This document shows, one piece after another, positions 24,205 to 64,000 of a DNA stretch of 64,000 nucleotides (the stretch's first letter is position 1; every line of letters begins with the position of its first letter). The notes under the pieces are model-generated. The model saw nothing but the letters and a program-made list of their open reading frames with translations, did not search any database and was not told the DNA's origin. The DNA is from Naegleria gruberi (lineage: Eukaryota): the NCBI GenBank assembly GCA_000004985.1, contig GG738899.1, one strand, 5' to 3'. Made by a program: the position numbers and the translations under genes.

Positions 24205-24322
24205 GACTACGGCCATATCACGATGAATGCACCTCATCCCGTCCGATTTGAGAAGTTAAGCATCGTCGAGCTACATCAGTACTGAGGTTGGAGACAACTT
24301 GGGAACCTGTGGTGCTGTAGTC
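24205..24322 (+). rRNA. 5S rRNA gene, copy 1 (118 nt), followed by a T6 Pol III terminator.
   Basis: GACTACGGCCATATCACGATGAATGCACCTCATCCCGTCCGATTTGAGAAGTTAAGCATCGTCGAGCTACATCAGTACTGAGGTTGGAGACAACTTGGGAACCTGTGGTGCTGTAGTC. Helix I pairs the 5' and 3' ends. There are two substitutions relative to copies 2 and 3. Confidence 0.9.
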
Positions 24323-24357
24323 TTTTTTATTTTCAAAATTTTGCTCATATTATGAAA

Positions 24358-25799
24358 TTAAACAACATCTTTTTCTTCTCCACAAATTACTGGTTGCTTT
24401 TCTTCTCCATTAATACACAAATCAACTTGTTGGCTCACTTGATTTTTTCCTGCTTCCCTATTATCAATATTAACATTACTACATGTTTCAACAACTGCAA
24501 CAACTGCAGTATCTTCAATGAACTGAGGTATTTGTGCTCTCGGTGTCGTTGCATGATGACTCTGTCTACTCAGAGTACTAAATTTCTTATGCACCAAGGT
24601 GGAGGATGACAAATTATTTGCCGATCTTAAACTGTGAGGATGATCTATATTGTGAGATGAATGATTATTCTCAACAATATTGGTGGTTGCCTTCTTGCTC
24701 AATGCTCTAAAAGGAGTATACAGAGCTAAAGCAGTACAGGCAAATATTAAGATACCAAGAGAATTGCAAGTGGAATAACCCAAGGCAAAGTGAGCTGTCT
24801 GTGGATCTTCCTGGGCTACTCCAGAAGCAGCAGCAAACGCTTCGAATAGAAAACAGCCGAATAATCCACTTTGTAATACGAGGATTTTGATAATGGTTCT
24901 TCTCTTGTTTTGGTTTTCTATGGAAATTTTGGAGATTGTTTTGAGAACCACTGTTGCAGCAATCTATTGGTATGATGATTGAAATTATTGTTATTGGATT
25001 AATGAATATTGAGCTAGATCAATTACATGAGTCCACTTACAATTAATAAGGTAATTTGAATTCCAATTTGAATTATGAAAATAATAAGACACAATCCATA
25101 GACATAGGTAATAGATTCATCACTAATATATCCCAATCTCTGCACAATGGTCAGAACAGTAACCACCAAATTAATCACCACCAATAAAACTGAATTAATA
25201 ATTGTGAAAATTGAAACAATATTCACAAAATAGTGAACTTTTTTTGAATTTAACAATCCACTCGATAATCTAAATGTTTCCACAAATACAAGTGTAACAA
25301 ACCAAACAATAATAATCATGACTTGAATGTCCATGAGGACAATAAACAATTCGGCAGCCACAGAAATTACGTAAACTATAATTTCTCCCATGGTTATTCC
25401 CACATCGTGGGGAGTTATTCCCATAGTGTTATTATACCACAAGAATGTATCAAATCCCTCTCTAGCAGTAGTAGAATTACTCCCAGATTGTACCAGTTGG
25501 GCAAAATTCTGGAATTTCATTCCAAACGAAATGTTAAAACTGTCATAAATAATTCGAAATATCAAGACGAAACATTCCATGATACACATGATGAGCACTC
25601 CAATAATCATTCTCTTATGGTTCTTTGTGATGGTTTGATGTTTTTTGAGATAAAAGTAGATGATGTACATGACTAGACATAGAGAGAAGAAGAGTGCTGC
25701 AATGGCCAGTGAAATTTCAATATACGAAACTATGAGAGGCTCTATACGAAAGACAGTCGTTAACACTGATGGTAAAGATGAAGATGTGTCATTCTGCAT
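24358..25799 (-). CDS. Orphan multi-pass (about 7-8 TM) membrane protein of about 454 aa with a C-terminal soluble tail. Exons 25041-25799 and 24358-24963, intron about 24964-25040.
   Basis: A 77-nt intron (GTAAGT…CAATAG) joins …QITLLI|IAATVVLKTISK in frame. The total is 455 codons. Seven to eight predicted helices are followed by a tail of about 120 aa (…HHATTPRAQIPQFIEDTAVVAVVETC…). No family signature was recognised. It may be a GPCR-like protein. Confidence 0.5.
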
Positions 25800-26229: not shown

Positions 26230-27819
26230 TTACAGTGATTTGAAATTTTGTTGATGTGTTGGCAAAGATAAGAACTCATTTGGATAATTTACAGAGCCAT
26301 TGGGTGGGATAGAGGCGTAGTATGATTGATTCAAAAATGGTGGAGGTACCAGAGAAGTATTATTATTTTGGGTGGAAGTTTCAATTTTTGTCTTCTTCTT
26401 TGGTTGTTTTTTTGGCTTTGGTGGAGGTTGTGGTTGAGTTGGAGGCTCTGCTATAGAACCTTCTTTTTCTCGTTCCTCTAATTCCTGTTTTTCTTTCTTT
26501 GACAAAAATCTGCCTCCAGGACCTCTAGCTCTTTTCTTTGCCCATTCGTGGCGAGAATTGTACTTGTAGGATTTGTCCTTATATTGCCCAGCATTTTTCA
26601 TTTGTTGTTCCAATTTAGCTCTGGCTACTCTTCTTTTCAAAATTCTTTGGTACTGTTTTGGATTTACATAAATTGTTCCTTCAACATTTTGTTGAGAGTT
26701 ATCTGCTTCAGCATTTGCTTGATTATTGGAATAGTCTTGAACTAGTGACTCTGGTTGCTCTTCTTCAGCACTTGTGGGTATTCCAGGTTGTTGTGAATAT
26801 TGATAGTAATTCCAATAGTGATGATTTGGATAAGAATACCAATGCATTTCAGGTTGGGAGTACAAAAAGTTAGGATCATGACTCATACCATTAGCAGCAA
26901 GATAAAAAGGTTGCATTATTCCATGTCCAGTCATTGCAGAAGAATGCAACATATTAGGATAGGAGTAAGCAGAAGTAGTAGAAGTAGGCAGACCATCAAG
27001 CTCATTCTCATATGCATGTTGTTGAAGAGTTGGTTGCTGTTGTTGGGTTGTGACTGGTCGTGCAGATGAGCTTCCCTTTTGGGTTGGATTGGATTGATTG
27101 GAAGAATTTGAGCTAACACGTTTCCTTTTCGGAGAGGTTTTTACAGTGGTTGTTTGAATCAAAGTACTACTCGGATCATTGATAGGAGTGGGAGCTGTGG
27201 CTGTAGTAGGAAGCTTGTTCAAAGGCAAAGATTTGACATTGTTTGTTTGTGAAATTATTGGTGATGGAATGGTTACGTTAGTAGTTGTAGTACTAATGCT
27301 ACTGAGTGCAGTGGCAGACACAACAGTTGAAGGGAGAGCAACAACAGCAGAGGACGAAGCCACATTGGTTGAAGGGAGAGCAAAAGGTGGAGGAAGGAAA
27401 GAACTTTCCATTGTCGATGATTGTTGTTGGAGTAAAAATTGAGTACCTCCTCTCATCATGGCTGCTGATGAAATTGCAGCTGACGATGATCCTCTACTAT
27501 TAATTGTAGAGGTACTACTGCTACTACTCGATGGCTTGAGAGGATCATGAAGAATTGATTGTTGTTGTTGCTGTTTGGGTGAGGAGTGAGTAGGGAGGAC
27601 AGAGAGAATTGATAGAGCAACCTGTTCATCACCAACCGATGATCTGTGATGAAGAGGATTTTCTTGATGATGATGGTGTTGATCCATAATTACAAACTCT
27701 CTTGGAGTTTGTATATTTGCATCATCATCACTACTGCTACTAATGAAGGAAGAATCGTCTTGATCGTCCTCTTCTTGATTACCAATCGGATCAACAACAC
27801 AAGTGTACTCTTCAGCCAT
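26230..27819 (-). CDS. CCAAT-binding factor subunit NF-YA / HAP2 homologue (529 aa) with long low-complexity tracts.
   Basis: The conserved NF-YA core is EGTIYVNPKQYQRILKRRVARAKLEQQ…YNSRHEWAKKRARGPGGRFL (subunit-interaction plus DNA-binding halves). It is flanked by poly-Q, poly-S and His runs and a Lys/Pro-rich C-terminus. Confidence 0.8.
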   Translation of the reverse strand: MAEEYTCVVDPIGNQEEDDQDDSSFISSSSDDDANIQTPREFVIMDQHHHHQENPLHHRSSVGDEQVALSILSVLPTHSSPKQQQQQSILHDPLKPSSSSSSTSTINSRGSSSAAISSAAMMRGGTQFLLQQQSSTMESSFLPPPFALPSTNVASSSAVVALPSTVVSATALSSISTTTTNVTIPSPIISQTNNVKSLPLNKLPTTATAPTPINDPSSTLIQTTTVKTSPKRKRVSSNSSNQSNPTQKGSSSARPVTTQQQQPTLQQHAYENELDGLPTSTTSAYSYPNMLHSSAMTGHGIMQPFYLAANGMSHDPNFLYSQPEMHWYSYPNHHYWNYYQYSQQPGIPTSAEEEQPESLVQDYSNNQANAEADNSQQNVEGTIYVNPKQYQRILKRRVARAKLEQQMKNAGQYKDKSYKYNSRHEWAKKRARGPGGRFLSKKEKQELEEREKEGSIAEPPTQPQPPPKPKKQPKKKTKIETSTQNNNTSLVPPPFLNQSYYASIPPNGSVNYPNEFLSLPTHQQNFKSL

Positions 27820-33414: not shown

Positions 33415-36400
33415 TTACATGGTTGAAGTACTAGTAGCAGGCTTCAATCCTTCACCAACATATCTAATGGCATGCTTATTTTGTGAAATGGCAATACGAA
33501 CAGTCTCCTTATTGATAAATCTTTCAGCAAGTCTTCTCAATACAAGTCCATTTGTAGAGACAGCAACCTTTACCATATCTTCACTGATACGGTTGGCATG
33601 TCTGATGAGGAATGGATTCTTCTTGATAATAGGGGTCATGAATTCAATGTCAGATCTGAGGAATCTTGAAGCATAACGAATGGAATTCACACATTGATTA
33701 GTGGCAACGGCAACGAGTTCCTTATCAAAGGTATATTCATTTGGAAGATAGTCCAACAATCTACCATTCTTCTTGAGAGCTAATTCGCACAATTCTCGGT
33801 TAATCTTGTTAGATTTCAAGAATTGAATGCAATTTCCATATCTCTTGACAGACTCTCTAACAAATTCATCATCATTTCTCAAAGATTCGTCCAAAAATTC
33901 GAATGATTTACCATTACTTGTCTTGAGTGAAATCTTGGCAATTTCCAAATCCTTCTTCAATTCTGATGGAGCAAACTTGACAGCCAATCCACAATTTTTT
34001 ACAGCATCCAAAACAATTTGCTTGGTGTTTTGCAAATCAGCAGAGGCAAACTTTAAGGCACGACCATTTACTGAAACTGCCTTTTGAACAATTTCGTAAT
34101 CACTTCTGAATGGAATTGCCAAATATTCCAAGGCAAGACCATTAATGGCAATTGCTAATAGTGCAAATTCTCTGTCTTGTTTGAGGGTTTCACTGGCATG
34201 TTTGAGGGATTTTCTATTCTTCTTGAAACAATCGAGGACAAACTTGGAATCACTCTTCAAATCATCAGAGGCGAGTTTGAGGATAGTAGCTCTGTGATTG
34301 ATTGCTTCCTTGATGTGAGAGGTGTCGAAGGATTGGTCAACCTTTTTTGGATTCTTACGAGCAAGTGAGAGTTTGACATCTGAATCTTGTTGTAATTCCT
34401 TAGAAAGATAAACGAATGATTTTCCACTTTGATTGAGAGCTACCAAAGCAACTTGTTTGTTATTTCTCATATCTTCAGATGCAAATCTAATGGCAGATCC
34501 ATTTTGCTTGACAGCTGCCAAAACAACACTCAAATTATTCTTCAAATCATTGGAAGCATAATCCAACAACAAACCATCCTTCTTGACAACTTTCAAGGTA
34601 ACTTGTTCATTGTTTTGCATTTCCTTAGAAATGAATTTGTAAGCGTCCTTACTGCTCTCAATAGCTCTCTCAACAATTTCCAAATCTTCCTTAAGATGTT
34701 CATTGAGATATTTGATAGAGTCTCCATTATTGGCAACTGCCTTCAATGCAAATTCTCTTTCATTTCTCAAATCGAGAGGTAAATATTGAAGAATTTCAAC
34801 ACCCTTATGATTCAAAGCAGCGTTAGCAATTTCCTTATCAATAATAGTACTACAGGCATATCTGATAGCAGTAGAGTCACATTCAACAGCATATTTTGTG
34901 AATTCCTTATCTTCCCACAAATCAATTGAGACATATTTCAAACTGTCATAGCTTTCCTTGACAGCAACTCTGGCATATTCCTTGTAATCCTTGGAATTTT
35001 CGTCCAAATATTTGAGTGAAGCTCCTTCATAGTACAAGGAAGCAAGAACAACATCTCTGTCACTTAACAAACTCTCGTGAACGTATCTGATGGCGCTTCT
35101 GTCAGTTTTCATAGCTGCCAATGCAATTTCCTTATCCTTGAGAATTTCCTCATCAAATACATATTGTAAACTGGAGCCATATTCTTGAATAGCTGTCATG
35201 ACAATTTCTCTATCTTTCTTAATATTTTCTGGAAGATATTCCAAAAGACATCCTTCAATTCTTACTAATTTCAGTAAAGCTTGTTTGTCATGTCTCAATG
35301 GATGATCAGGAAGTTTGGCCAAAACCAAAGGTTGCTTTACAAGAGCTTCACTAATAAATTCAGGATCATTTCTGAATTTTTCTGGAACATACTTGATATT
35401 ATCTCTATTTTCAATCACAGCTCTGAGGCAGAGTTCTCTATCATTCATAATATCATCGTGACTGATAAAGTATTCTAAACCACATGAAGGCAAGGCAATC
35501 TTGACAAGTTTTGGATCATTTCTCAATTCGAAAGGAATATAATTAATGGAATACTTGCTGGACTGAATGGCAGTCATGTAAACATCTCTTTGTAAGGCAA
35601 GATGAAGTGGTGCATACTTGATTAAATCTCCACTCTTTCTAATGGCAGTCATGAGAATTTCCTTATCATTCAATAATTCAACTGGAAGATATTCGTAGAC
35701 GTTTGGTTCCTTTTCAATAATTCTCATAACAAATTCTCTATCTCTTTGGAGTTCAGCACTGGCATATCTGAATGCTGTATAATAATTCTCCACAGCTGTT
35801 GTGACAATATATCGATCATTGGTGAATTTGGAACCAGCAAAGAGAAGTGCACCTCCACTGCATCTCACAGCTTCCAATACAATTTCATAATCTTCTCTCA
35901 ATTCAAGAGCAGCAAATGCAAGAGCATCACCATTTTCTTGAACTGCAATTTTGACAATTTCTCTGTCAGCTTTGAGTTCTTCACTGGCATATTCTAAACA
36001 TCTTCCATCAAGATATACTGCAAACTTTACAAAATCTCTATTAGAAAGAAATTCTGGATCAACAATGGCATCAATAGATCTTTCCTTGACAGCTGTCATT
36101 ACAACTTGAAGATTGCTTGCAAATTCCTTGCAGGCATGTTCAAAAACGTAACTGCTGTCTCTAACACAAATCTTGACAAGCTCTGCATCTGAAAGATGAG
36201 TTTCATCATCAATATATCTCAAAATAGATCCATCCATTTTCAATGCCTTCTTAACAATTTCTCTATCAGATTGCAACTCTGATGGGAAGTAACGAATGTA
36301 ACTGCACTTTAAGGCATTCATGTAAATCTCAGCGTCATTCTTGAAATGTTCACACTCCTGTAAGACACTTCCATTGTTCTTGATGAGTCTCTTGATGAAA

Positions 36401-38745
36401 TCTCTGTCACTCAATAATTCCTCTGAGAGAATCTTTGGTTCAACGGCAATTCCATGATCGAGTAATTTGGTCATGAATTCTCTGTCTTCTCCTAATTTTG
36501 TATCAATATCGTTGAATCCATACTGATTGGTAAGGAGTGAGAGTAGAGCAATTTCTCTATCTCCCTTAAACTTTGGCAAATCTTCAATGTTTCCACCATT
36601 AAATTGACAAACTGTTTTGGCAAATTCTCTGTCGCTTCTGAGTCTTTCAGAAGCAAATTTGAGAGAATTATAATTGCCCTTACCTGACCAGAGAACAATC
36701 TTTTCATCATCTTTTTGTTGCTTGGTAACATATTCAAGAACTCTTCCATCATTTTCCAATGCAACCATTACAAGAGAAATGTCTTTTTTCAATTCATCAC
36801 TGGCATGAGCAAATGCTCTACCATCCATTCTAATTGCAGTTGAGACAATTTCTCTATCATTCTTGAGTTCTTTAGAGGTATACTCCAAAGCATCTCCTGA
36901 TTTCATTACTGCTCTCAACACGACCCCTCTGTCATTCTTGAGGTCACTCGAAGCATACTCCAATGCTGAGCCATTTTCAGAGACTGCCATCAGGACAATT
37001 TCCTTATCGTTTTTGAGCTCAGCAGAGGCAAATTCAAGTTCTCTACCGTTATTCTTGACCAATTCCATAACAATCTCTCTGTCATTCTTCATTTCATCAT
37101 TCAAATATTCCAGGATAGAGCCCCATCTTGAGAAGCTAGATTTGAGTTTGATTATTTGCAAACATAAATCTCTATCATTCTTGATATTATCTGAAACATA
37201 TTGTAAAGCATTAGTGTTCGAAGAGAGGGCAAGCTTTACAATTTCAAAATCATCTTTCAATTCATCAGAAGCATAAGCAAGAGCTGAACCATCTTGTCTG
37301 ACAGCTTGTTTGACAATCTCTCTGTCAGATTTAACTTCTTCTGGGGCAAATTCCAAAGCAGAACCACGAACCTTGATAGCAGCCTTAACAATTTCAATAT
37401 TTTCTTTGATTTCATCAGAGGCATACTCTAAAACTGAGCCATTCTTTCTGAGTGCCTTCTTGACAATTTCAATATTATTCTTGATATCATCTGAGAGATA
37501 GCTGAGAGCTCTTGGATCTTCTTCGAGGGCAATTAATGCAATTTCCTCATCATTCTTCAAATTATCTGAAGCATATTCAACAATACGACCATTCTTTCTA
37601 ACAGCCATTTTGACAATTTCTCTATCATCTTTCAAGGAATCATCAACGTATTCCAATACATCTGCATTAATCTTGATAGCTTGTTTCACAAACTCTCTAT
37701 CTTGTTTCAATTCATCAGAAACATATCCACATGCTCTGGCATTACTAGAAATGGCAGCAAGGGCAATTTCCTGATCAGATTTAAACTCATCCACAACATA
37801 TTCCATCACATATCCATCTGATTTGACAGCTTTCAACACCAAATCTCTATCACTTTGCAATTCTTCTGGTATTTCCCTTAAATCACTTCCATTTACCAGT
37901 AAAACAGCTTCAACCACTTCACGATCCTGTTTCAATTCATCAGATAAATCGCTCACTAATGAACCGAAAAAGAATGAACATCCTTCTTCCTTTACACCTT
38001 TCAAAACCTTCAAACAAAGATCCTTTTCAGTTCTGAACTTTGGATGAGCATGTGAAAAAACAGTTCCATTATATGACTTGGCAATTGCACTAATCACAAT
38101 ATCAATGTCAGCTTTCAATTCTTCTGGACAAAATTCAAGTGCAGAGCCACTCTTATCCAAAGCTATGAGTGCCAATTCTTTATCTTCTCTCAATTCTTCT
38201 GATGCAAATTGGAAAGCATCTCCATCATTCTGAACTGCAATTTTCACAATTTCATAATCAGCTTTCAATTCATCAGATAAATATTCCAAATTAGAACCAG
38301 CATCTTCAAGAACAATTAGTGCAATTTCTCTGTCGTTTTTCAATTCGTCTGATGCATATTTGATGGATGATTTATCTTCTTTAATGGCCAATAGAACTAA
38401 TTCTTTATCATTTCGTAAAGAATCGGATGCATTTTCTAATAAATTGCCTCGTTTAGGGAGAGCTTTCAAAAACACTAGTTTACAATCATTGTCTGGGAAT
38501 GGATTTTCTGTTAAAAAATCGTCAACGGCAAAGTAATCATCATCAATTCGTCCAAAAGCTTCGAATAATTGTTCCAAATGTTCGAAAGCTTGTTTCTGAC
38601 GATTAACAACTTGATTACGTAAATAGATTCGATGATTTAACAGAATGGAATATGCAGAATTATTGTTGCCATCACATGAATGATCATAGCTTGATCCTCC
38701 ATTAGCGTTCAATGTGACAATTCTAGCATCTTCAAAGTTTGACAT
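33415..38745 (-). CDS. Giant intronless repeat protein (1776 aa). About 45 tandem ~36-38-aa repeats of DUF4116 type.
   Basis: Repeat consensus: …(D/N)(R/K)E(I/V)(V/A)L.AV..(N/D)G.AL.YAS.(E/D)LK.D… repeated across almost the whole ORF (DREIALIVLEDAGSNLEYLSDELKADYEIVKIAVQNDGDAFQFASEELREDKELALIALDKSGSALEFCPEELK…). DNA-level repeats have diverged. Flanked by the two tRNA genes. Confidence 0.8.
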   Translation of the reverse strand: MSNFEDARIVTLNANGGSSYDHSCDGNNNSAYSILLNHRIYLRNQVVNRQKQAFEHLEQLFEAFGRIDDDYFAVDDFLTENPFPDNDCKLVFLKALPKRGNLLENASDSLRNDKELVLLAIKEDKSSIKYASDELKNDREIALIVLEDAGSNLEYLSDELKADYEIVKIAVQNDGDAFQFASEELREDKELALIALDKSGSALEFCPEELKADIDIVISAIAKSYNGTVFSHAHPKFRTEKDLCLKVLKGVKEEGCSFFFGSLVSDLSDELKQDREVVEAVLLVNGSDLREIPEELQSDRDLVLKAVKSDGYVMEYVVDEFKSDQEIALAAISSNARACGYVSDELKQDREFVKQAIKINADVLEYVDDSLKDDREIVKMAVRKNGRIVEYASDNLKNDEEIALIALEEDPRALSYLSDDIKNNIEIVKKALRKNGSVLEYASDEIKENIEIVKAAIKVRGSALEFAPEEVKSDREIVKQAVRQDGSALAYASDELKDDFEIVKLALSSNTNALQYVSDNIKNDRDLCLQIIKLKSSFSRWGSILEYLNDEMKNDREIVMELVKNNGRELEFASAELKNDKEIVLMAVSENGSALEYASSDLKNDRGVVLRAVMKSGDALEYTSKELKNDREIVSTAIRMDGRAFAHASDELKKDISLVMVALENDGRVLEYVTKQQKDDEKIVLWSGKGNYNSLKFASERLRSDREFAKTVCQFNGGNIEDLPKFKGDREIALLSLLTNQYGFNDIDTKLGEDREFMTKLLDHGIAVEPKILSEELLSDRDFIKRLIKNNGSVLQECEHFKNDAEIYMNALKCSYIRYFPSELQSDREIVKKALKMDGSILRYIDDETHLSDAELVKICVRDSSYVFEHACKEFASNLQVVMTAVKERSIDAIVDPEFLSNRDFVKFAVYLDGRCLEYASEELKADREIVKIAVQENGDALAFAALELREDYEIVLEAVRCSGGALLFAGSKFTNDRYIVTTAVENYYTAFRYASAELQRDREFVMRIIEKEPNVYEYLPVELLNDKEILMTAIRKSGDLIKYAPLHLALQRDVYMTAIQSSKYSINYIPFELRNDPKLVKIALPSCGLEYFISHDDIMNDRELCLRAVIENRDNIKYVPEKFRNDPEFISEALVKQPLVLAKLPDHPLRHDKQALLKLVRIEGCLLEYLPENIKKDREIVMTAIQEYGSSLQYVFDEEILKDKEIALAAMKTDRSAIRYVHESLLSDRDVVLASLYYEGASLKYLDENSKDYKEYARVAVKESYDSLKYVSIDLWEDKEFTKYAVECDSTAIRYACSTIIDKEIANAALNHKGVEILQYLPLDLRNEREFALKAVANNGDSIKYLNEHLKEDLEIVERAIESSKDAYKFISKEMQNNEQVTLKVVKKDGLLLDYASNDLKNNLSVVLAAVKQNGSAIRFASEDMRNNKQVALVALNQSGKSFVYLSKELQQDSDVKLSLARKNPKKVDQSFDTSHIKEAINHRATILKLASDDLKSDSKFVLDCFKKNRKSLKHASETLKQDREFALLAIAINGLALEYLAIPFRSDYEIVQKAVSVNGRALKFASADLQNTKQIVLDAVKNCGLAVKFAPSELKKDLEIAKISLKTSNGKSFEFLDESLRNDDEFVRESVKRYGNCIQFLKSNKINRELCELALKKNGRLLDYLPNEYTFDKELVAVATNQCVNSIRYASRFLRSDIEFMTPIIKKNPFLIRHANRISEDMVKVAVSTNGLVLRRLAERFINKETVRIAISQNKHAIRYVGEGLKPATSTSTM

Positions 38746-44731: not shown

Positions 44732-47700
44732 TTACATTAAATTGGATTGTTTCAATAATTCTTCTCTGCTGTTACTGGAAGTGGAATATTCTTCAAACTC
44801 TTGTGTATAGAAAAATCTAGAGAAAGTATCTGATAGATTGATTAATATTTGATCTGTAAGGGATTTGATATTATCAACAACCATATCAGATAAATTTGCA
44901 GGAAGGGAGTTCTTTTTTGTTTTGGAAACTGATTGCTTCTCGTCTACTAATTCGAGATTATTTGCATTTTTCAACTTTGCCACCATTGAGGCAAAAGATT
45001 TTCTGCAATCAGATGGAATATTCACTTCCCTAATAGAACCAGATTTCACATAATCATCATAAATATTGTTAATAAACTCTATTATTTCTGCCAGTCCCTT
45101 TTCGATAATATTGGAGTTTTTGGTTAAATGTAAATAGAGTTGAAGATTTTCAAGTGAAAACTCTTTTCTGCAGAAACTATCAAATATCTTTAGGAATATT
45201 GGATTTTCTAGGTATTGATTGATTTCTACCTTCTCTTGTTCATTCTTTTCACCATTCCACACTTTCATTCTTTGGGCTAACAATACAAGAAGGGAATAAC
45301 CTCCATACACTAGCATGTATGTAACAATATGTAATACCTCGAAAATGATTGAAACCGAGTCATAGGTCACTACAGTTCTTACTATAGCCAATGGTGCTAA
45401 TTTTGTTTCGGTATAACCTGTTAGTAACAGCCTATAGTTAAGACTAGCCATTCCCAAAGCTTGTACAATGACAAGGAAAATAAATGAAATAACAAACAAA
45501 ATCATTTCAGCTCTGAAGAACAGTGGAGAATCAGCCTCTACAAACCAAGAAAAGAGGAAATTGAAAACCTTACCCAAAATATTTTGAGCTTTCATCTTTT
45601 GAGATTCTTTAGATCTGTTGGTTGTTTCATTCTTGTTCAAATTTCTCTGATACCATGTCATTATCAAATCTACTGAAAATATACAACAAACAGCAAAACC
45701 AATAAATAGAATTGCAACAGTATAAGAAATGGAAACTATTTGGGTGTATTCAGGGCCAGTAATCACGTTTGTTCTAACTAAAATAACCCACAAAGTCCAA
45801 TATGCTAAATTGATAAATGCAAAAGTAATCAACATAATGCTGTAGAATTTTGCAGATATCAGATGCTTGATAAAGTGAAGAAATCTACTTGCAGTCACCT
45901 TATCGTTCATTAAGGATAATTCATTATAGAAATATTTTAAAAATTCAAATCTCATAACCTGATACAAGTATGTCATGATTGCACACAGGGTTATGGTGTT
46001 TACAATAATTGTAATAATATTTGCCAATATAGAGGAAGCTAGATAACTATTGGCATCGTTTGATTGGGTAGAGGAAATCAAAACACTTCGTTGAACAATG
46101 AGTAGAAGAGAGCTTTGGGTAATCAAAGCTGCCATTCCCAAGAAAGGGGTTGTGAATCTGCTCTTTACAGGTTGTTTGTTAGCATTCAAAGCTAATCCTA
46201 TCAAGACTGCAACAGCACAAATCAAGTAAACTGAACCTAGGGCAATCTGAGTACCATGAACACCAATAAATTGATCGACATATGGTTCAAATGTAATACC
46301 CACAGGAACTTGCTCTATAAAAGCAGAAAATAAAGTGGTATGAGTACAAGAGCAAACAATTTCACCAGTTGCCGAGTTTAAGGATTTCAAAGTGCAACCG
46401 TCAGTATCCCATTTGGACATGGTTTCATTCCAATATTTACAAATGATTCTACTATTATTGCTAGAGCTAATGGGGGTGTTTGAATTGAATGAAATTGAAA
46501 AAGGTTTCACAAGGCTCTTCAAATTCATGCTGTTGCCGTTCCTATGCATTGTGAAATCCTTAGCATTGGCAGCGAAGGTGGCATTAGTCTCTGGATACAC
46601 TATTCCATTAAAGGATACTACAGATAAACCAACTTCAGTGGAGAAGGAGGAGTATTGTGCAAGAATGGAATCAGCTTCAAATAAAATTGAGTCAAACCGA
46701 TTTGTTACCGTTGAAGTTGAAGCACTGTCTTTCGAAAAACTTGAGTATGTAATATTAATATTGGCTGAAGTTATAATTGTTGAAGGCAAGAGTGTATCAC
46801 TTGAAGTAAGGAGGGTTGGTATTGAGGAAATTACTAAAAGTGAAGACAATTTGGTCGCTAAACGACTATCCAATCCCTTTTGAACTAAATTGGATGATGT
46901 TGAAAGAATCGTTTTCGTATCTTCATCTGAGATCTTGGAAGACACAAATCCCTGTTGGCTCTTTTGAGTTTTGTAAGAATTTACAGAATTTCCAAGGTAA
47001 GAATCCAGGTTTTGTATAATTAAATTGGACACAGAGGTAGTGAGATTTTTTTCAGACATAGAATACAGTGATCCAAGTCCAACTGTTGGATTTTCCGCTG
47101 AAATAGTGAAATTCTGCATAGCCATTAACAGTAATTGGTCATATTCATCCGATGATCCAGTGAATGATGAGTCATATGGAACCACTTTAGCAATTCTTGA
47201 ATCGGTCTTCATTAGAGACATTGCCTCACTTGGGGTGCTGTAGAATCTAAGCATTGTCACAACTGATTGAACTAAAACTGACTGTACATTAGATAAGTTA
47301 TCCTTTGCAAAGACCACCAAGTCTGTTGGCTTGTTTTGTTCCATATTTTTTGTGAAAGGCAAATAAGTCAGTAATTGTTGGCCCATAGGTACAAATTCAG
47401 TTAATCGTAGAGTCTGGTTGTTGTAAACAATACCTATTGCAAAAGAAAGCGGGGATTGATCTGCAGAGAAAATTTTCCAGTCGCTTTCGTTTTCCTGAAT
47501 ACTAAACAAGGTATACAGACCAACTCCTCTGTTAGGAGATATATTTAGATTTGAATTTGATGACTTTCTAATTATTGAGCTGGCTACAGGAATGGTGTGA
47601 TTAATCACCATAGTGTTTTGGATAGCACCAGTAATTGTAAAGGAAAGGGTAGCAAAATTAGTAGAACCTTCAAGTTTTACCAATCCTTTGACATTAACAA

Positions 47701-49564
47701 AGGGGTTGAGACTAATACTGGTGAAATTAGAGTTTTTGTTTGCTGTTCCTCTTGTAGTAATTTGATCAGAGCTTGAATATATTCTTTCCTCATACACAAG
47801 CTTCCATGAAATAGAGATGATAGTTGAACAGCTATTACATTCGTTTTGGTTAATTAATGCCAAAAATCTTTTTGTGTCAATGTTGAATCCTGTCAGGACA
47901 CTGTCAATCATTTGATTTTGTGATAGGGATATAGCTTTGATTATATCAGTAACATTGGAGGTGCTATCAAAACTTGAATTATTTGCATAAGTTGAATTGA
48001 ATGTGCTATTATCTACCCCAATTGGTGGTATTACAGTAACTGTAAAATTAACAGAATTAGAGGTTCTAATTATTGCTCCTTCTTGTATATGATTCACCCT
48101 AACAGTTACAATGAAGGTTCCAAGGCTTGAAGCATTAAATAACAATGAACTGAAATTATTATCAATTGGCATTGCACATTTTTCGCAATTCCATATAAAA
48201 TTAATCCCATTAGTAATAGTTTCTGAAACATTAATCTGTAGAACTTGAGATTTTCCTATCTCAACATCATAATTTGAATTAATTGCATTGATAAGAAAAG
48301 ATGAATTGAATTGGCATTGATTTCCCACGAATCCTACTCTACAACTGCATGTATCAGTTTTTGCGCAGTTGCCTCTTCCACTGCAAACAGATGAGTCGTT
48401 TGATAATTTTCCATAACAATAACTTATCAGACATTGTGGATCTGAGCTATTTGTATCACAATTCATTAAATTGAGTCTTCCTATCTGTAGGGTATTCGTA
48501 TCTGTGAAATAGAGAGTTCCGTTTGAATGGACATATAATCCAACAGGTTTGCTAACAGAGATTCCATATTTAGATTCTGCCAATATCGTTCTTATTGTAT
48601 TCTTCTCTATATTAAATACTTTGATTTTTCCTGAATCAGTATCAGCAATATATAGCATTTTACCATCTGGACTCAAAGCTATCCCTTGAGGATTATTCAA
48701 GTTGTGACTAAGAGGATCCAAAGCATCATTTTCAGAAGTGAAAGGGTTTTCTCCTGACCCCACAACAGTTTCCAATAATTTGCTAGAAACGTTATATCTC
48801 TTGATCAAGTTTGTTTCACTATCACAAATGTAGAGGATATCACTTGAAGACATTGCCAGAGAAGTTGGTTTTTGTAGGCCTCCTTGTTGTATCCCTAAAT
48901 CAATCTCAATCTCATTTACAAATCCATCCGTGCCAACTCTAAATATCTTGTCATTGCTGGTAACATAAAGAATTGAGGAATAGAGAGCCAATCCCTTTGG
49001 TTCAATAAGATTAATATGCGCCTTATCATAAGGTGGCGCATATTCAGCCGACCTGTTTCCACTTCCAACATAGTTTTGCAATATCCCTGATGATAGTACT
49101 AGTTTTTTGATGAAATCATTATTAGTGTCAGTAAATAGTACAGTATCCGAATCCATAAAAACAACAGAAGATGGTGAATTTAGAGGAGAAGTAGGACCAA
49201 AAGCAGAACCACCAAGGTCAATAGTAGCATTACCTGAATAACCTGCTCCAGCCAAAACATATGCTGGTGCACCATTATCTGAGAAAAACAACAATCTATG
49301 ACTTCCACTATCAACAACAATAATTGTGTTAGCATCCTTAACTAAAACCGAAGTTGGAGACTTTAAAAGTGAAGTATCCACTGGAAACAAATCCGCCGAT
49401 GTTACAACAGTAGTATCAATAATTGTTGTATTGACATCGATAAGTTCTGGAGGAAGAGGAATTGGTGTTGGTGAGGGTCCAGGAGCCGGCGCAAAATCAG
49501 CAACGATAACTGATGTCAGAACAAGCACAAGAACCAAAAGAAATAGAGGTGTGTATCTTGACAT
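44732..49564 (-). CDS. Adhesion-GPCR-like 7TM receptor with a C-terminal RGS domain, 1610 aa. Domain order is signal peptide, NHL-type beta-propeller repeats, EGF-like module, long Ser/Thr/Asn-rich stalk, GAIN/GPS motif, 7TM, RGS. Paralogue of 3661-8166.
   Basis: Signal peptide: MSRYTPLFLLVLVLVLTSVIVA. NHL-like blades: LYVTSNDKIFRV, LYICDSETNLIKRYNV, LYIADTDSGKIKVFNIEKN, LYFTDTNTLQIGRLNL. EGF module: CSGRGNCAKTDTCSCRVGFVGNQC. GPS motif: CKYWNETMSKWDTDGCTLKSLNSATGEIVCSCTHTTLFSAF. Seven TM helices. RGS box: FSLENLQLYLHL…REVNIPSDCRKSF. Confidence 0.8.
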   Translation of the reverse strand: MSRYTPLFLLVLVLVLTSVIVADFAPAPGPSPTPIPLPPELIDVNTTIIDTTVVTSADLFPVDTSLLKSPTSVLVKDANTIIVVDSGSHRLLFFSDNGAPAYVLAGAGYSGNATIDLGGSAFGPTSPLNSPSSVVFMDSDTVLFTDTNNDFIKKLVLSSGILQNYVGSGNRSAEYAPPYDKAHINLIEPKGLALYSSILYVTSNDKIFRVGTDGFVNEIEIDLGIQQGGLQKPTSLAMSSSDILYICDSETNLIKRYNVSSKLLETVVGSGENPFTSENDALDPLSHNLNNPQGIALSPDGKMLYIADTDSGKIKVFNIEKNTIRTILAESKYGISVSKPVGLYVHSNGTLYFTDTNTLQIGRLNLMNCDTNSSDPQCLISYCYGKLSNDSSVCSGRGNCAKTDTCSCRVGFVGNQCQFNSSFLINAINSNYDVEIGKSQVLQINVSETITNGINFIWNCEKCAMPIDNNFSSLLFNASSLGTFIVTVRVNHIQEGAIIRTSNSVNFTVTVIPPIGVDNSTFNSTYANNSSFDSTSNVTDIIKAISLSQNQMIDSVLTGFNIDTKRFLALINQNECNSCSTIISISWKLVYEERIYSSSDQITTRGTANKNSNFTSISLNPFVNVKGLVKLEGSTNFATLSFTITGAIQNTMVINHTIPVASSIIRKSSNSNLNISPNRGVGLYTLFSIQENESDWKIFSADQSPLSFAIGIVYNNQTLRLTEFVPMGQQLLTYLPFTKNMEQNKPTDLVVFAKDNLSNVQSVLVQSVVTMLRFYSTPSEAMSLMKTDSRIAKVVPYDSSFTGSSDEYDQLLLMAMQNFTISAENPTVGLGSLYSMSEKNLTTSVSNLIIQNLDSYLGNSVNSYKTQKSQQGFVSSKISDEDTKTILSTSSNLVQKGLDSRLATKLSSLLVISSIPTLLTSSDTLLPSTIITSANINITYSSFSKDSASTSTVTNRFDSILFEADSILAQYSSFSTEVGLSVVSFNGIVYPETNATFAANAKDFTMHRNGNSMNLKSLVKPFSISFNSNTPISSSNNSRIICKYWNETMSKWDTDGCTLKSLNSATGEIVCSCTHTTLFSAFIEQVPVGITFEPYVDQFIGVHGTQIALGSVYLICAVAVLIGLALNANKQPVKSRFTTPFLGMAALITQSSLLLIVQRSVLISSTQSNDANSYLASSILANIITIIVNTITLCAIMTYLYQVMRFEFLKYFYNELSLMNDKVTASRFLHFIKHLISAKFYSIMLITFAFINLAYWTLWVILVRTNVITGPEYTQIVSISYTVAILFIGFAVCCIFSVDLIMTWYQRNLNKNETTNRSKESQKMKAQNILGKVFNFLFSWFVEADSPLFFRAEMILFVISFIFLVIVQALGMASLNYRLLLTGYTETKLAPLAIVRTVVTYDSVSIIFEVLHIVTYMLVYGGYSLLVLLAQRMKVWNGEKNEQEKVEINQYLENPIFLKIFDSFCRKEFSLENLQLYLHLTKNSNIIEKGLAEIIEFINNIYDDYVKSGSIREVNIPSDCRKSFASMVAKLKNANNLELVDEKQSVSKTKKNSLPANLSDMVVDNIKSLTDQILINLSDTFSRFFYTQEFEEYSTSSNSREELLKQSNLM

Positions 49565-59586: not shown

Positions 59587-60096
59587 TTACAAGACATACA
59601 TGCAAATGATTGTATAAATACCCAAACTAACAGTACTCAATAATCCCCAAAACCAAACCAATGTTCTCCAAGGTTGTAAATTGAACCAATACATGAAAAA
59701 GTAGACCATTCTGGAAAGGGTAAAGCTTGCCATCAGAATATTCCCCACAATGGCATTCCACAAGGAATATTGAGGATCAGTAGTTGAGTTATAGCTCATT
59801 GTTGAGACAATAACATATGGAATTGCAATCATGATGAATGGCAAAACATTTTCAATATCATTTCTGTGAATGTTGCCAGCTAATTCAGCACGAGAGGCCC
59901 ATGAGGAAGGTTTCTGATCTTCGAGAGAGGAATCACTATTGTTAACTCCTTGCTTTTGTTTCTTTTTGGTGGCCATGGTATCAATCATTTTAGAAACACC
60001 TGTAATTTGAGCAGCAATGAATACACGAAACATTAGGAGAAAGACGTTATAGACGAATCCTTGAAGGACAGCATTGTAGAGAATGAGTGGTTGCAT
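59587..60096 (-). CDS. MAPEG family / microsomal glutathione S-transferase (MGST1-like), 169 aa.
   Basis: RAELAGNIHRNDIENVLPFIMIAIPY…PQYSLWNAIVGNILMASFTLSRMVYFFMY aligns with the MGST1 core (ERVRRAHLNDLENIxPF…). Four TM helices. Confidence 0.8.
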   Translation of the reverse strand: MQPLILYNAVLQGFVYNVFLLMFRVFIAAQITGVSKMIDTMATKKKQKQGVNNSDSSLEDQKPSSWASRAELAGNIHRNDIENVLPFIMIAIPYVIVSTMSYNSTTDPQYSLWNAIVGNILMASFTLSRMVYFFMYWFNLQPWRTLVWFWGLLSTVSLGIYTIICMYVL

Positions 60097-60455
60097 TTTG
60101 TTTGTTCTTTCACACCAGACTGTCTCGTTGAGCTATTTGAACTGTTTTGAATAAGTGTCAGCAAAAACAACATACATCCTCCCGCCCGTAGATCTTTAAA
60201 TGGAGGCGGGGTCTTTATTGAATTAGTGCGGCCAATAAGAACGTCCACAGTTCTGAGAACTATGCCTATTGGTATTTGTAACAATGTGCATTTCCTTTAT
60301 GAAGATGATGTTAATTTGTTTGAATGAGCAATCTTTAAAAAACCCACTCCAATTAATAATACAAAGCACTGCTCAAGAGTGTAGCATATCGATATGCTTC
60401 ACATGGTACTAACAGAATTGATCAAGTTGATATCTGGCATTTTATGATAATAGAT

Positions 60456-60573
60456 GGCTACGGCCATATCACGATGAATGCACCTCATCCCGTCCGATTT
60501 GAGAAGTTAAGCATCGTCGAGCCACATCAGTACTGAGGTTGGAGACAACTTGGGAACCTGTGGTGCTGTAGTC
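60456..60573 (+). rRNA. 5S rRNA gene, copy 2 (118 nt), followed by a T5 terminator.
   Basis: GGCTACGGCCATATCACGATGAATGCACCTCATCCCGTCCGATTTGAGAAGTTAAGCATCGTCGAGCCACATCAGTACTGAGGTTGGAGACAACTTGGGAACCTGTGGTGCTGTAGTC. Upstream element TTTTATGATAATAGAT|GG. Confidence 0.9.
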
Positions 60574-61188
60574 TTTTTAATTTCGATTTAATTTATGTGT
60601 TGTTATCTTATTGTTTTTACAACTTTAAATATTGAAATGTAGAGATATTGAAAATGGAAATGTACAAATATGTGAAGAAAATTAAATACAAATCATTTGA
60701 CAATTTAAAGAACTTTATTGAAAAACTTGTAAAATTCAATCTTATCCAAATTGTTTGGGTTGTTGTTTACTATTAGGGAGACTCTTTTAACTGCTGTGGA
60801 TTCACATTACTGCAAATACTTGGTTACAATCAGGGATTACCTCACTCTACATTAATTATCAACCCTCTCGCCACTCTTTCTAGAACGATTTGATTGGACA
60901 AGAGGGCTCAATGAATCTATTAATATACTCGACTGAAGATTCATTGTAGTAGGTTTCTTTTTTTTTAATTGAACAAGAGACAATTTTCACATTCAAGCCA
61001 GCTCACTTTCTATTTATATTTTAGGAAATGCCACTTTCAACTTTTGAAGCAAACATTCATGAATGTAATTTTCATTTGATCAACAAGTTCATAGGAAGGA
61101 TCAATATCAGTTATATCTGTCTTTGTAAAAGAATAAGGAAGTATATTAATTGTACAATGTTCTATTTATTTTTATTTTTATAATGAAT

Positions 61189-61240
61189 GGCTACGGCCAT
61201 AGCAAGATGAAAGCACATCATCTCAATTAGGAACCTATCT
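61189..61240 (+). pseudogene. Internally deleted 5S rRNA-derived copy (about 52 nt), with the upstream promoter-like element and T-run retained.
   Basis: GGCTACGGCCATAGCAAGATGAAAGCACATCATC…TCAATTAGGAACCTATCTTTTTG is 5S positions 1 to about 35 fused to the 3' terminus. About 65 nt including the internal A/C-box region are missing. Upstream is TTTTTATAATGAAT|GG. Confidence 0.6.
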
Positions 61241-61857
61241 TTTTGCCTTATTGATTTTTCAACCTGGGTAAGTTGGCCTAGTTGTCCACTTCCATTTCAC
61301 AGATTATTATAGTATTTGTGCAAAGAATGAGGAAATTCTCCACTTTATTAGTTGTTTCTTACAACTTTCAGGAGGAAGTTCTTAAAAATTGTGAGCTGAT
61401 CTTGAAGCCATGATGGAAATTGCTCTTCCACCTCAATAATTAATCAAGTCAACATTCAATTATTTTCTTGAATCGAAATTTATATTTTTCACACATAAAA
61501 GTACCACAATTTTTTAACCTCACTTTTCACACATTCAAAACCAATATCATAAACCTCACAAATCAAACTTGATAAAGCCATTGACTGTACTTCTACAGGA
61601 TCTTTTCTGTAGGAATACATAAACTCGACTTTTTTGAGTCAATCTGACCTTTGAGGTTAACCAAGATGAAGACTCTGTAGTCACATATCTTGAGCATGAT
61701 ATCGAACTGGAAACATGCTTCGCTGTAGGTTTCCTCGTTCATAGATGATTGCTGCATTCCTTACCAGCCATGGTTTGTGAATGGGGGATTTGTGAACATG
61801 CAGATTGGTACCTTAATTTTTTTAATAATTAATAGAAACTTAAACAATTTCAACGTC

Positions 61858-61899
61858 CTATGGCAGCATTTCAAGTTCTAGGAACCTATGTTTCTTTTG
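61858..61899 (+). pseudogene. Second, more diverged 5S-derived fragment sharing the same deletion junction.
   Basis: CTATGGCAGCATTTCAAGTTCTAGGAACCTATGTTTCTTTTG shares the CTAyGGC…AGCA…TAGGAACCTAT-TTTCTTTTG junction with the 61189 copy, where the intact gene reads GGGAACCTGTGGTGCTGTAGTC. Same orientation. Confidence 0.4.
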
Positions 61900-62738
61900 T
61901 TGCTTTGCACTTATCAACCAAGATCTATTTGGAACTTTCTTTGCATTAATAGGTACAAAGTGAAAGTCGCCTTAAAAAACTGACTAATAACATCATAAAA
62001 TTAGATTTAGAACAGACAATTACTGAAATTGTAAAACATTGAAAGTTTAATGATTGTTTGTAGGGTTGTATGCAACATTTCTTCTCCAGTATGAACGTTT
62101 CCTCTCAACCAAATATTTGGAGAATGAAACACAATGACCTTGTTTTACATGATGTTCAAAATCATTGTCACTAATTACTTCATAAACATTTTCTTTACAA
62201 ACAGCACAAAACGAAACTCCGTACGAAACCTCAATAAATTGTCTAAGGGAAATGAAAGAGTTCTTCACTATCTTGGCCAACAGATTGAAAAAACTCCCAA
62301 ACTTTAATTGAAACTTCCATTTCAGAGTTGGCTCTATTTTTAAAGAAAGAATTATACCATAATGAAATGAATGTTTTCAACAATCTGAAGCTAAGAGAGA
62401 TTGCAAACCAATACTGATTTTGAGGCATGTGTAATTCTAACATCACTATCAGCTCGTATTCTACCACTAAACCATCGACGCTTCTTATTAGTCTATCAAA
62501 TATTATAATAATAGATAGTGTGATTTAATAAACTGTCATCAATGAAGTGTTGGTGGCGAAACTCCACCCATGCCTTTTTTACCTCCTGTTAAAATTACAT
62601 TAAGAATTTGAATGGAACATCATAAGTTTTATCTGGTTCAAAACCATCAATTTTCGAATGGTGTTTTAGTACTCACTCACAAATTAAACTATAACAAATT
62701 AAGAGATAGCTCATTATCTTAATTTTGATATTAACAAT

Positions 62739-62856
62739 GGCTACGGCCATATCACGATGAATGCACCTCATCCCGTCCGATTTGAGAAGGTAAGCATCGT
62801 CGAGCCACATCAGTACTGAGGTTGGAGACAACTTGGGAACCTGTGGTGCTGTAGTC
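62739..62856 (+). rRNA. 5S rRNA gene, copy 3 (118 nt), followed by a T5 terminator.
   Basis: Identical to copy 2 except one substitution (GAGAAGgTAAGC). Upstream element TTTTGATATTAACAAT|GG. Confidence 0.9.
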
Positions 62857-62892
62857 TTTTTAATTCAAAATATCAAAGTAAAATGAAATTTT

Positions 62893-63836
62893 TTATTTTA
62901 AATATAAATTGGATGTATTAAATAAACATTTACAATTTAATTCTAATTTATCAAATTTATATTGTTCAAGTACAGTGGTATCAAATTGTAATTCTTGTAA
63001 AATCAAACATTCAACAGTTAATTCATTTAAATTTAAAGGAATATTTAATTTTTTTAAATCATATTCAATAATTGTTAATTTTTTTAAATTACATAAATTA
63101 TTTAAATTAACTATTGTAGTTCCTAATTCTTCTAAATGTAATATTTCTAAATTAATCATATTATTTATAATATTAATTTCAGTTAAATAACATCCAGTTA
63201 AAGATAATTCAGTTAAATTTAATTTTGAAATTGCATTTAAAAAATTAAAATAATTTAATTGTTCTAATTCTGATTTAAATATTAAACTTTTTAAATTATT
63301 TAAATGAATAATACCTTCACCATTTAATTCTGTATCTGTAAATGATAATTTTGTTAATTTGGTTAAATATTTTAAATTAATTTCATTTTCAATTTCATTA
63401 CAATATAATTCTTTTAAATTATTTAATTTAGATAATAGAATAATATCCAATTCATTTAAATTAATTGATAAATGTAAAATTGATAAATTATTTAAATTAT
63501 TTAAATATGGTAATACTAAAATGTTTAAATAATAGAAGAAACCCTTAACATACCTTTTATATCACCTTTTAATTCATATATAGAATTAATGTAATTATTA
63601 TTTTCACAAAATTTAATAAAACTATTAATGTATTTAAATCTGCTATTATATTTGATATTAATAATTGATTTGTAATTTAATTTATTACAAATAATAACAT
63701 TCCATTCTTTTGATATTATTCTTAAATATTTACAACAATATTCAAAGGTAAAATATTTAAATAAATGTTCTATCAATATTTCCGATGGAATGTTCGGTGA
63801 GGAGGAATAATTAATCATATGAACTGAGGATGACAT
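62893..63836 (-). CDS. F-box / leucine-rich-repeat protein, 301 aa, extremely AT-rich. Exons 63554-63836 and 62893-63515, intron about 63516-63553.
   Basis: Exon 1 is MSSSVHMINYSSSPNIPSEILIEHLFKYF…, an F-box-like N-terminus. A 38-nt intron (GTATGT…TTTTAG, phase 1) joins to an LRR body (…LNNLNNLSILHLSINLNELDIILLSKLNNLKELYCNEIENEINLKYLTKL…LNLTELSLTGC…). Total is 302 codons. Coding GC is about 15-20% with nearly all third positions A/T, unlike every other gene in the window. Confidence 0.6.
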
Positions 63837-64000
63837 TTTTTTTAATAATGAAAAACAATTGATTGGAAATTCACATCAATTCCAGAATTACAGAAAAACC
63901 AGAAACATTTCGAACAAAAACCGAACACATGATGATTGTGGAATTACTTTATATGATTTCCCTCCCTTCTTCCTGTTAGATTGTTTAATTGTGTAGTGGA

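Follow-up and report, generated by a model that had tools for sequence, protein, structure and literature searches.

How can an intact protein-coding gene come to differ so far in base composition from the DNA around it? The question is raised by a gene on the minus strand at positions 62893-63836 of a 64,000-nucleotide (nt) stretch of the Naegleria gruberi genome (contig GG738899.1 of assembly GCA_000004985.1), referred to here as the window. A preliminary description, made by reading the letters alone, had singled out this locus as an extreme outlier in guanine-plus-cytosine (GC) content. Our measurements agreed: the GC content of 62893-63836 was 15.8%, compared with 33.7% (SD 2.6) in sliding windows of the same length, of which the lowest outside any overlap with the AT-rich segment reached 27.8%. 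The analysis described below revealed an unannotated, two-exon gene that encodes a divergent leucine-rich repeat (LRR) solenoid and whose AT-rich composition begins abruptly within its own coding sequence (CDS). We tentatively favor the explanation that this orphan gene is functional and that its body is an import, taken from an extremely AT-rich source and then joined to a 5′ end that was native.

The AT-rich segment starts inside the coding sequence

The AT-rich segment, which we call the island, and the parts of the gene lie in the window as follows.

62859..63781, no strand assigned: AT island, 923 bp, 14.2% GC against 33.0% outside
63554..63836, minus strand: exon 1, 283 nt, codons 1-94 and the first base of codon 95 (from translation and splice reconstruction)
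63782..63836, minus strand: first 18 codons, MSSSVHMINYSSSPNIPS, host-like, 40% GC (22 G+C in 55 nt)
63516..63553, minus strand: predicted spliceosomal intron, 38 nt, phase 1, GTATGT…TTTTAG, 24% GC, joining two frames
62893..63515, minus strand: exon 2, 623 nt, remainder of codon 95 through codon 301 and the TAA stop

The limits of the island were obtained by maximum-likelihood two-boundary segmentation of positions 61001-64000, a 30-nt GC profile, and binomial tests on sub-segments. The left edge lies directly past the 3′ end of a 5S rRNA gene, so that the island includes the 35-nt spacer (11% GC) between that gene and the stop codon of the LRR gene, and the right edge lies 55 nt within the CDS. 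On either side, GC is back at 30-33% within tens of bases; the upstream flank, which comprises the 164 nt between the gene and the end of the window, has 30% GC. Under the composition of the island, the first 55 nt of the CDS have a probability of 2.4e-6, compared with 0.89 under the composition of the host. The edges of the island fall elsewhere than those of the CDS, which makes the gene a mosaic in composition and the island a DNA segment rather than a trait of the whole CDS. The ATG at 63834-63836 is the first start codon past an upstream in-frame stop, and the only in-frame Met codons before residue 213 are found within the normal-GC first 18 codons, which means that translation must start in normal-GC DNA.

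No second AT island was found in the other 63 kb of the window. The non-ORF DNA of the window (that is, DNA outside open reading frames) has 31% GC and its lowest 200-nt chunk 18.5%; the island therefore stands apart from native intergenic DNA and does not agree with a regional mutation bias. Clearly, the DNA of the island differs in history from the DNA next to it.

The gene is intact, probably spliced, and extreme in codon usage

The gene runs from a start codon at 63836-63834 to a TAA stop at 62895-62893. Its spliced CDS of 906 nt encodes 301 amino acids (aa) plus the stop and has an overall GC content of 15.5%, with 19.5% at first (GC1), 19.5% at second (GC2), and 7.3% at third codon positions (GC3). 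The earlier impression of third positions made almost purely of A and T was thus confirmed, and the comparison with the window background that had been proposed as a check gave a clear answer: 35 other ORFs with 150 or more codons range over 31.8-39.6% GC, their GC3 is 30.0 ± 4.4%, with a minimum of 22.6%, and an index resembling the codon adaptation index (CAI) was 0.84 for the gene compared with 0.705 ± 0.044 for the host ORFs. When the 301-aa protein was redrawn synonymously from the codon usage of the window (20,000 draws), GC3 was 31.5 ± 2.5% with a minimum of 22.6%, which places the gene at z = −9.6. The bias is seen in single codon families, with TTA in 51 of 56 Leu codons (host, 25%), AAA in 26/26 Lys codons (host, 55%), TTT in 13/13 Phe codons (host, 60%), and GAA in all 26 Glu codons. 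Moreover, residues with AT-rich codons (FYMINK: Phe, Tyr, Met, Ile, Asn, and Lys) make up 46% of the product, compared with 33 ± 4% (maximum, 41%) in the host ORFs, and those with GC-rich codons (GARP: Gly, Ala, Arg, and Pro) make up 4%, compared with 16 ± 3.5% (minimum, 9%). These shifts indicate that the AT pressure shaped the protein sequence as well, beyond the choice of codons.

An open frame of this length is not a product of chance. At the composition of the island, a random codon is a stop with a probability of 0.11, and the longest open frame in the island extends over 222 codons, compared with a maximum of 123 among 3000 first-order Markov random sequences of the same composition. 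The two frames are joined by a candidate intron whose donor constitutes the only GTA[ATG]GT hexamer in the 944 nt of the gene and falls exactly at the frame junction. We estimated the chance of finding a consensus donor together with an in-phase YAG 30-60 nt downstream, in the 45-nt zone in which both frames are open, at about 0.001; a frameshifted pseudogene in place of an intron was ruled out on the basis of this estimate and of the junction hexamer. Four other introns of the window, deduced from ORF joins, are 39-48 nt long, start with GTAAGT, GTATGT, or GTAGGT, end in YAG, and have 17-24% GC. The predicted intron resembles them in donor, length, and GC content, and we consider 63516-63553 to be a spliceosomal intron of the host type; its composition is statistically compatible with that of both the island and the host. 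Both the intact two-exon frame and the canonical 38-nt intron of the preliminary description were thereby recovered.

We rejected a mitochondrial or bacterial origin of the gene, since the intron, the presence of TGG codons but not of in-frame TGA, and the lack of matches speak against it. No mimivirus-type AAAATTGA promoter was seen in sense orientation upstream of the gene when this sequence was read by eye. Collectively, the reading frame and the splice sites argue for a real, intact, spliced nuclear gene of N. gruberi that is presumably expressed.

The product contains a divergent LRR solenoid and a putative F-box-like motif

The protein would consist of a short Ser-rich leader, a degenerate F-box-like motif (residues 17-57), a linker, and about ten divergent LRRs. 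The corresponding features of the gene are listed below.

62917..63584 (spans the intron), minus strand: LRR solenoid, residues ~85-294, ~10 repeats of 20-27 residues each
63666..63788, minus strand: putative F-box-like motif, residues 17-57, PSEILIEHLFKYFTFEYCCKYLRIISKEWNVIICNKLNYKS (PSEILIEHLF…IISKEWNVII)
63020-63305 versus 63229-63506, minus strand: old internal duplication, 68% identical, offset ~209 nt (~three LRRs), E = 1e-10 in a blastn search of the island against the window

LRR proteins are built of tandem units of 20-30 residues with an LxxLxLxxN/C core and form a curved solenoid with a parallel beta-sheet. In a phmmer search of 1.84 billion representative proteins, the 301-aa product yielded 123 matches at E ≤ 1e-3, with a best composition-corrected E value of 1.2e-12. 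All 123 pass through residues ~90-260, and none covers the N terminus. All 28 matches that were fetched are long, LRR-containing proteins of internalin or planctomycete type; a cluster look-up of the ten best matches returned metagenome and Logan assembly proteins, nearly all of them nameless. AlphaFold, when supplied with a multiple sequence alignment (MSA), modeled a solenoid with ten strands spaced 20-27 residues apart and with predicted local distance difference test (pLDDT) values of 80-95 over residues 70-290. The MSA behind this model is made of the LRR proteins themselves, and the single-sequence model was too poor for use (pLDDT 43). Foldseek matched the solenoid to internalin A (3.7e-8), SDS22, the LRR domain of Roco, and FBXL17. 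At the same time, Pfam returned no family at E ≤ 1 for the whole 301-aa protein, and the C-terminal part taken alone reached LRR_4 at 12.6 bits (E = 0.18), below the threshold of 27 bits. Taken together, the repeat matches and the model make the assignment of the C-terminal two thirds to a divergent LRR solenoid a sound one. The duplicated block of ~290 nt within the array points to an old growth of part of the array by three repeats. A recent tandem-repeat expansion was ruled out, as no high-identity tandem repeat was found.

The N-terminal part is less distinct. The F-box is an N-terminal helical segment of about 45 residues with the pattern LPxE(I/L)L…(V/I)(C/S)KxW…(L/I). Residues 17-57 agree with this classical pattern when read by eye. 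A hidden Markov model (HMM) that we built ad hoc from 14 canonical F-boxes scored residues 17-57 at 11.2 bits, a score reached by none of 2000 shuffles (maximum, 7.4), and AlphaFold placed helices at residues 18-28 and 31-44, with a pLDDT there of only 40-62. The Pfam F-box models (PF00646/PF12937) did not match the whole protein, residues 1-94, or residues 11-57, even at E ≤ 10, and there were no F-box proteins among the PDB sequence matches of the 301-aa protein. We regard residues 17-57 as a weakly supported F-box-like motif. Of the F-box/LRR assignment made initially, the LRR part is thus backed by phmmer, AlphaFold, and Foldseek, while the F-box part is the weaker one, and the Pfam cut-offs were reached for neither. 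The proposed link to FNIP-like repeats was not borne out, as Pfam gave no match to FNIP (PF05725).

The order of parts resembles that of the FBXL-type receptors of Skp1-cullin-F-box (SCF) ubiquitin ligases, such as Skp2, FBXL17, and TIR1, in which an N-terminal motif at the F-box position, a linker, and an LRR solenoid follow one another, and FBXL17 (6wcq_B) had the highest TM-score among the PDB matches (TMq 0.51). Unlike these receptors, the window protein scores below the Pfam cut-offs for both F-box and LRR and has no sequence homologue. Furthermore, FBXL repeats have 26 residues and contain cysteine, whereas those of the window protein have 20-27 residues and match best to internalin/SDS22-like repeats. 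Bacterial internalin/SDS22-like and planctomycete-type LRR proteins provide the best matches both in sequence (E = 1e-12 to 1e-3, residues ~90-260) and in fold, but they are long multi-domain proteins of normal composition, and none has the N-terminal part of the window protein. This similarity to bacterial LRR proteins is generic to the repeat. By analogy with the FBXL architecture, the most likely role of the product would be to recruit substrates for an SCF-type ubiquitin ligase, as an adaptor that would attach to Skp1 through the F-box and to its target through the LRR solenoid.

The gene has no detectable relatives and is missing from the N. gruberi proteome

When the full protein was searched against a word index of 5.8 billion proteins, nothing was returned at E ≤ 1e-3. 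With the N-terminal 111 residues, two proteins of the same index shared words, and neither scored at E ≤ 10. In the exhaustive phmmer search of the 1.84 billion representatives, no E value fell below 1e-12, and the matches were confined to the LRR region. Similarly, no relative of the 301-aa protein was found in IMG/VR, the JGI metagenomes, or the GTDB genomes, no specific homologue among the PDB sequences, and no paralogue in the 64-kb window (tblastn and blastn). An exact look-up of the two exon ORFs, in the form in which a prokaryotic gene caller might call them, also found nothing. The homologue search suggested at the outset, aimed at nucleocytoviricota and amoebozoan proteomes, therefore yielded no giant-virus, Dictyostelium, or other homologue in the databases searched.

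The product of the gene itself was absent from the protein databases as well, although N. gruberi proteins are present there; for instance, an NCBI entry named ‘predicted protein [Naegleria gruberi]’, from a 331-kb contig, matches the neighboring ORF at 59587-60096 (minus strand) with 100% identity over 169 residues. It follows that the gene is unannotated and lies outside the published proteome. A likely cause is that AT-rich, low-complexity DNA is masked or scored badly by gene models. An intact, spliced gene of 301 codons is thus missing from the reference proteome, probably through its composition, and other such genes may be missing too.

Comparison with giant viruses of Naegleria

Naegleriavirus carries nine LRR genes at one end of its genome, and a 23-nt repeat unit from that virus has been given (PMC11043551). 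A search of IMG/VR for this exact unit, AATATAACAGATGATGGATTAAA, led us to the 1.15-Mb viral contig IMGVR_UViG_3300024991_000079, in which the unit lies in frame (NITDDGLK) within an LRR gene encoding 412 aa (unit at 668-690, ORF at 320-1558 of the retrieved piece). The 412-aa protein belongs to a tandem family of 340-450 aa whose members carry LRRs behind a short conserved N-terminal motif; we count the resemblance of this architecture to that of the window protein in favor of an imported gene body. Likewise, the F-box and LRR families of Naegleriavirus and the Klosneuvirinae combine a length of ~300-450 aa with a short conserved N-terminal motif and LRRs, and the Naegleriavirus-like contig shares with the window gene a high FYMINK content (44% versus 46%) and a strict use of A/T-ending codons. 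Unlike the genes of these families, the window gene contains a spliceosomal intron and stands alone among host genes. Giant-virus F-box and LRR proteins were among the structural matches (E = 4e-8 to 1e-5), but bacterial and eukaryotic LRR proteins scored at least as well. No recognizably viral protein occurred among the fetched best matches of the 1.84-billion-protein search.

In Acanthamoeba, endogenized viral islands have been described (PMC11702301) that share with the present locus a sharp local departure in GC content coinciding with coding sequence. The Naegleria case differs from them in that it consists of a single gene body of 0.92 kb, with no hallmark gene and no flanking repeats.

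The contig also bears on Naegleriavirus itself. There, AATATAACAGATGATGGATTAAA was presented as part of a non-coding, MIMIVIRE-like repeat region (PMC11043551). As the unit lies in frame within an LRR gene of the related contig, this ‘repeat region’ may represent an LRR gene that is unannotated or has decayed, and not a defense array.

Origin of the AT-rich gene body

How, then, did the mosaic arise? Although we hold it with reserve, we prefer the reading in which ordinary Naegleria DNA supplies the upstream region, the start codon, and codons 1-18, while the gene body, which begins at codon 19 and includes the intron and the 3′ end, forms a 0.92-kb segment shaped under much stronger AT pressure than the rest of the window. 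The body would have come from an extremely AT-rich genome, such as that of an unsampled giant virus, another mobile element, or an AT-rich eukaryote, would have been joined to the native 5′ end beside the 5S gene, and would then have been kept by selection. If so, the gene would point to a very AT-rich virus or organism partnering Naegleria, and it would imply that single-gene captures can escape the homology-based screens used on these genomes.

Several observations weigh against an import. It is the composition that suggests a foreign origin, and the searches revealed neither a donor nor a homologue. The gene body contains a host-type spliceosomal intron, and if this intron was gained after the transfer, the composition would have had time enough to approach that of the host by drift. 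The intron thus argues against a recent, unmodified viral import; of the recent acquisition from an AT-rich genome proposed in the preliminary description, we have kept the acquisition as the leading idea, although no viral or Dictyostelium homologue supports it and the intron speaks against its being recent and unmodified. To our knowledge, cytoplasmic mimivirids carry no spliceosomal introns. Nor did the Naegleriavirus study find self-splicing introns (PMC11043551). The 23 ORFs of the Naegleriavirus-like contig have 26.2 ± 1.4% GC and a GC3 of 22.5 ± 3.0% (minimum, 16.6%), compared with 15.5% and 7.3% for the gene; BLASTP between the gene product and the Naegleriavirus-like LRR protein gave E = 0.37, that is, no pairwise similarity; and the viral LRR proteins match Pfam LRR_6/LRR_4 at 54-81 bits, compared with 12.6 bits for the window protein. 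There are no viral hallmark genes by the island, whose neighbors are 5S, U3, and host genes (164 nt being visible beyond the gene), and no flanking terminal or inverted repeats beyond low-complexity matches. Endogenized giant-virus DNA is unreported in Naegleria (PMC11043551; PMC11702301), and viral genes show no enrichment among the methylated genes of N. gruberi (PMC12344493). Collectively, a Naegleriavirus-like donor is not supported. Rather improbably, the gene might be a domesticated gene from an unsampled virus or mobile element of Naegleria with ~15% GC, or else the tip of a class of AT-rich genes that masking hides from all Naegleria annotations; given the intron, a virus or element acting as donor would have replicated in, or passed through, the nucleus.

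The strongest competitor of the import, unlikely in our view but to be taken seriously, is that the gene is native and lies in a small patch of raised C→T mutation caused by deamination of methylated cytosines, with purifying selection holding the frame. N. gruberi has 447 hypermethylated, heterochromatic regions, which involve all four CX contexts and lie on repeats and silent genes together with H3K9me3 and H3K27me3 (PMC12344493). Context-free deamination would leave no dinucleotide signature, and indeed the (CpA+TpG)/(ApC+GpT) index is 1.44 in the island and 1.50 in the rest of the window. The host-type intron and the host-like 5′ end fit a native gene, and the residues of the LRR consensus (L, N, and I) have AT-rich codons and are tolerant of drift. 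On the other hand, methylated genes are mostly silent (PMC12344493), and a silent gene would lose a frame of 301 codons at 11% stops per codon. In addition, the patch would have to begin abruptly 55 nt inside the CDS while sparing the promoter side, and no native ancestor or paralogue was detected. The same dinucleotide index bears on repeat-induced point mutation (RIP), a process that depletes CpA/TpG relative to ApC/GpT and acts on a duplicated target; with values of 1.44 and 1.50 and no second copy in the window, RIP-like mutation was rejected as unsupported. Doubtful, and less probable than methylation drift, is a native, fast-evolving family of AT-rich F-box-like/LRR genes hidden by masking and by the training of gene models. 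This gene itself is absent from databases that hold the N. gruberi proteome, so similar genes could have been missed too; its intron is of the host type, it uses the commonest codons of the host more strictly than host ORFs do (CAI-like index of 0.84 versus 0.705 ± 0.044), and the old internal duplication would represent growth of the repeat array in place. Nevertheless, the other 63 kb of the window contain no further island or paralogue, and metagenome gene calls, which are free of eukaryotic training, are also without relatives. Host bias alone is insufficient, since a GC3 of 7% lies below the GC content of host introns (17-24%) and of non-ORF DNA (31%), and codon selection would neither spare the first 18 codons nor shift GC1 and GC2 so strongly. 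Should the gene be native after all, the context-free cytosine methylation of N. gruberi would be a testable cause of AT drift, and gene-sized patches of protist genomes would be able to reach 14% GC while under selection.

A de novo birth of the gene from AT-rich periodic DNA that encodes LxxLxLxxN-like units, captured behind an existing start codon, appears improbable. Its orphan status, the degenerate repeats that score under the Pfam LRR cut-offs, the mosaic 5′ end, and the internal duplication would all fit such a birth; however, native non-coding DNA has 31% GC (18.5% in its lowest 200-nt chunk) and not 14%, there is no high-identity tandem repeat, genuine LRR proteins match at a composition-corrected E of 1e-12, AlphaFold predicts the solenoid with confidence, and the F-box-like motif occupies the expected N-terminal position. 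Even less probable is an assembly artifact or a contaminant joined to Naegleria DNA, as might be suspected from a composition unlike that of the rest of the window and from the position of the gene only 164 nt from the window end, with little visible beyond it. The reading frame continues unbroken from the host-like codons 1-18 across the island boundary, the intron resembles the other introns of the window, the left edge adjoins an intact 5S gene, and no organism in the databases matches the island sequence. As to the isochore that had been invoked for the proximity to the 5S genes, the term denotes DNA of homogeneous composition across tens of kilobases, including non-coding DNA and neighboring genes. 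The island does touch the 3′ end of a 5S gene, but it is 0.92 kb long, has normal GC on either side, and follows on from a region (60100-62858) that includes two 5S genes and the U3 gene and has a normal GC content of 27-40% per 100 nt. The flanks of the other 5S genes are ordinary and unrelated, and 34 nt past the 5S gene at 24205 lies the end of a normal-GC ORF. An isochore or 5S-linked domain was ruled out on these grounds, and a domain around 5S/U3 linked to RNA polymerase III retains hardly any probability.

The 5S/U3 neighborhood and other genes of the window

The following RNA genes were identified in the window.

62739..62857, plus strand: 5S rRNA gene, convergent with the LRR gene (Rfam RF00001, 102 bits), 3′ end 35 nt from the LRR stop
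24205-24323 and 60456-60574, plus strand: other 5S rRNA genes (Rfam scan)
61581-61809, plus strand: U3 small nucleolar RNA gene, between the last two 5S genes

What had been taken for a 5S cluster thus consists of three dispersed 5S genes on the same strand and a U3 gene. The three 5S copies differ by 1-2 bases, and their homology is limited to the gene, a short motif (ATTTTnTGATA-like) that precedes it by ~10-25 nt, and the T-run terminator. The idea that a comparison of the 5S flanks would show an insertion was rejected, as the three copies have unrelated flanks. Downstream of the 5S gene at 24205-24323, the convergent, normal-GC ORF at 24358-24951 (minus strand, 197 aa) ends at a distance of 34 nt; as this ORF lies equally close to its 5S gene, tight packing against 5S is ordinary in this genome. 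For this ORF and the AT-rich gene alike, a 3′ untranslated region longer than ~35 nt would run antisense into the 5S gene.

Between U3 and the last 5S gene, the minus strand at 62047-62467 contains two adjacent short ORFs (74 and 77 aa), which may form one small spliced gene; the 77-aa ORF has a CxxC…HxxxxxH pattern suggestive of a zinc finger. The gene at 59587-60096 (minus strand) encodes a MAPEG/microsomal glutathione S-transferase with an 88%-identical N. gruberi paralogue on another, 397-kb contig, which hints at a segmental duplication that possibly holds a second copy of the neighborhood.

Further from the AT-rich gene, the minus strand at 33415-38745 consists of a single ORF of 1776 aa that is made up nearly entirely of DUF4116 repeats (36 matched stretches, 1257 bits). 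Two large, intron-poor ORFs at 3661-8166 and 44732-49564 (both minus strand; 1501 and 1610 aa) encode a GPS autoproteolysis motif followed by an RGS domain and differ in their extracellular-type modules, which are EGF/teneurin-like in one and an NHL/SGL beta-propeller in the other; judged by their domains, they look like receptors resembling adhesion G-protein-coupled receptors fused to RGS. The window also encodes an actin-family protein; like the DUF4116, GPS/RGS, and NF-YA proteins, it is in keeping with a Naegleria genome. Finally, the 529-aa ORF with an NF-YA domain at 26230-27819 (minus strand) is identically encoded on a 1.8-kb metagenome contig in ENA (ERZ929261, ERR1078381, PRJEB11402). 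Four other window proteins were not found in ERZ929261; the identical NF-YA ORF indicates that an N. gruberi-like organism, or its DNA, was present in that sample.

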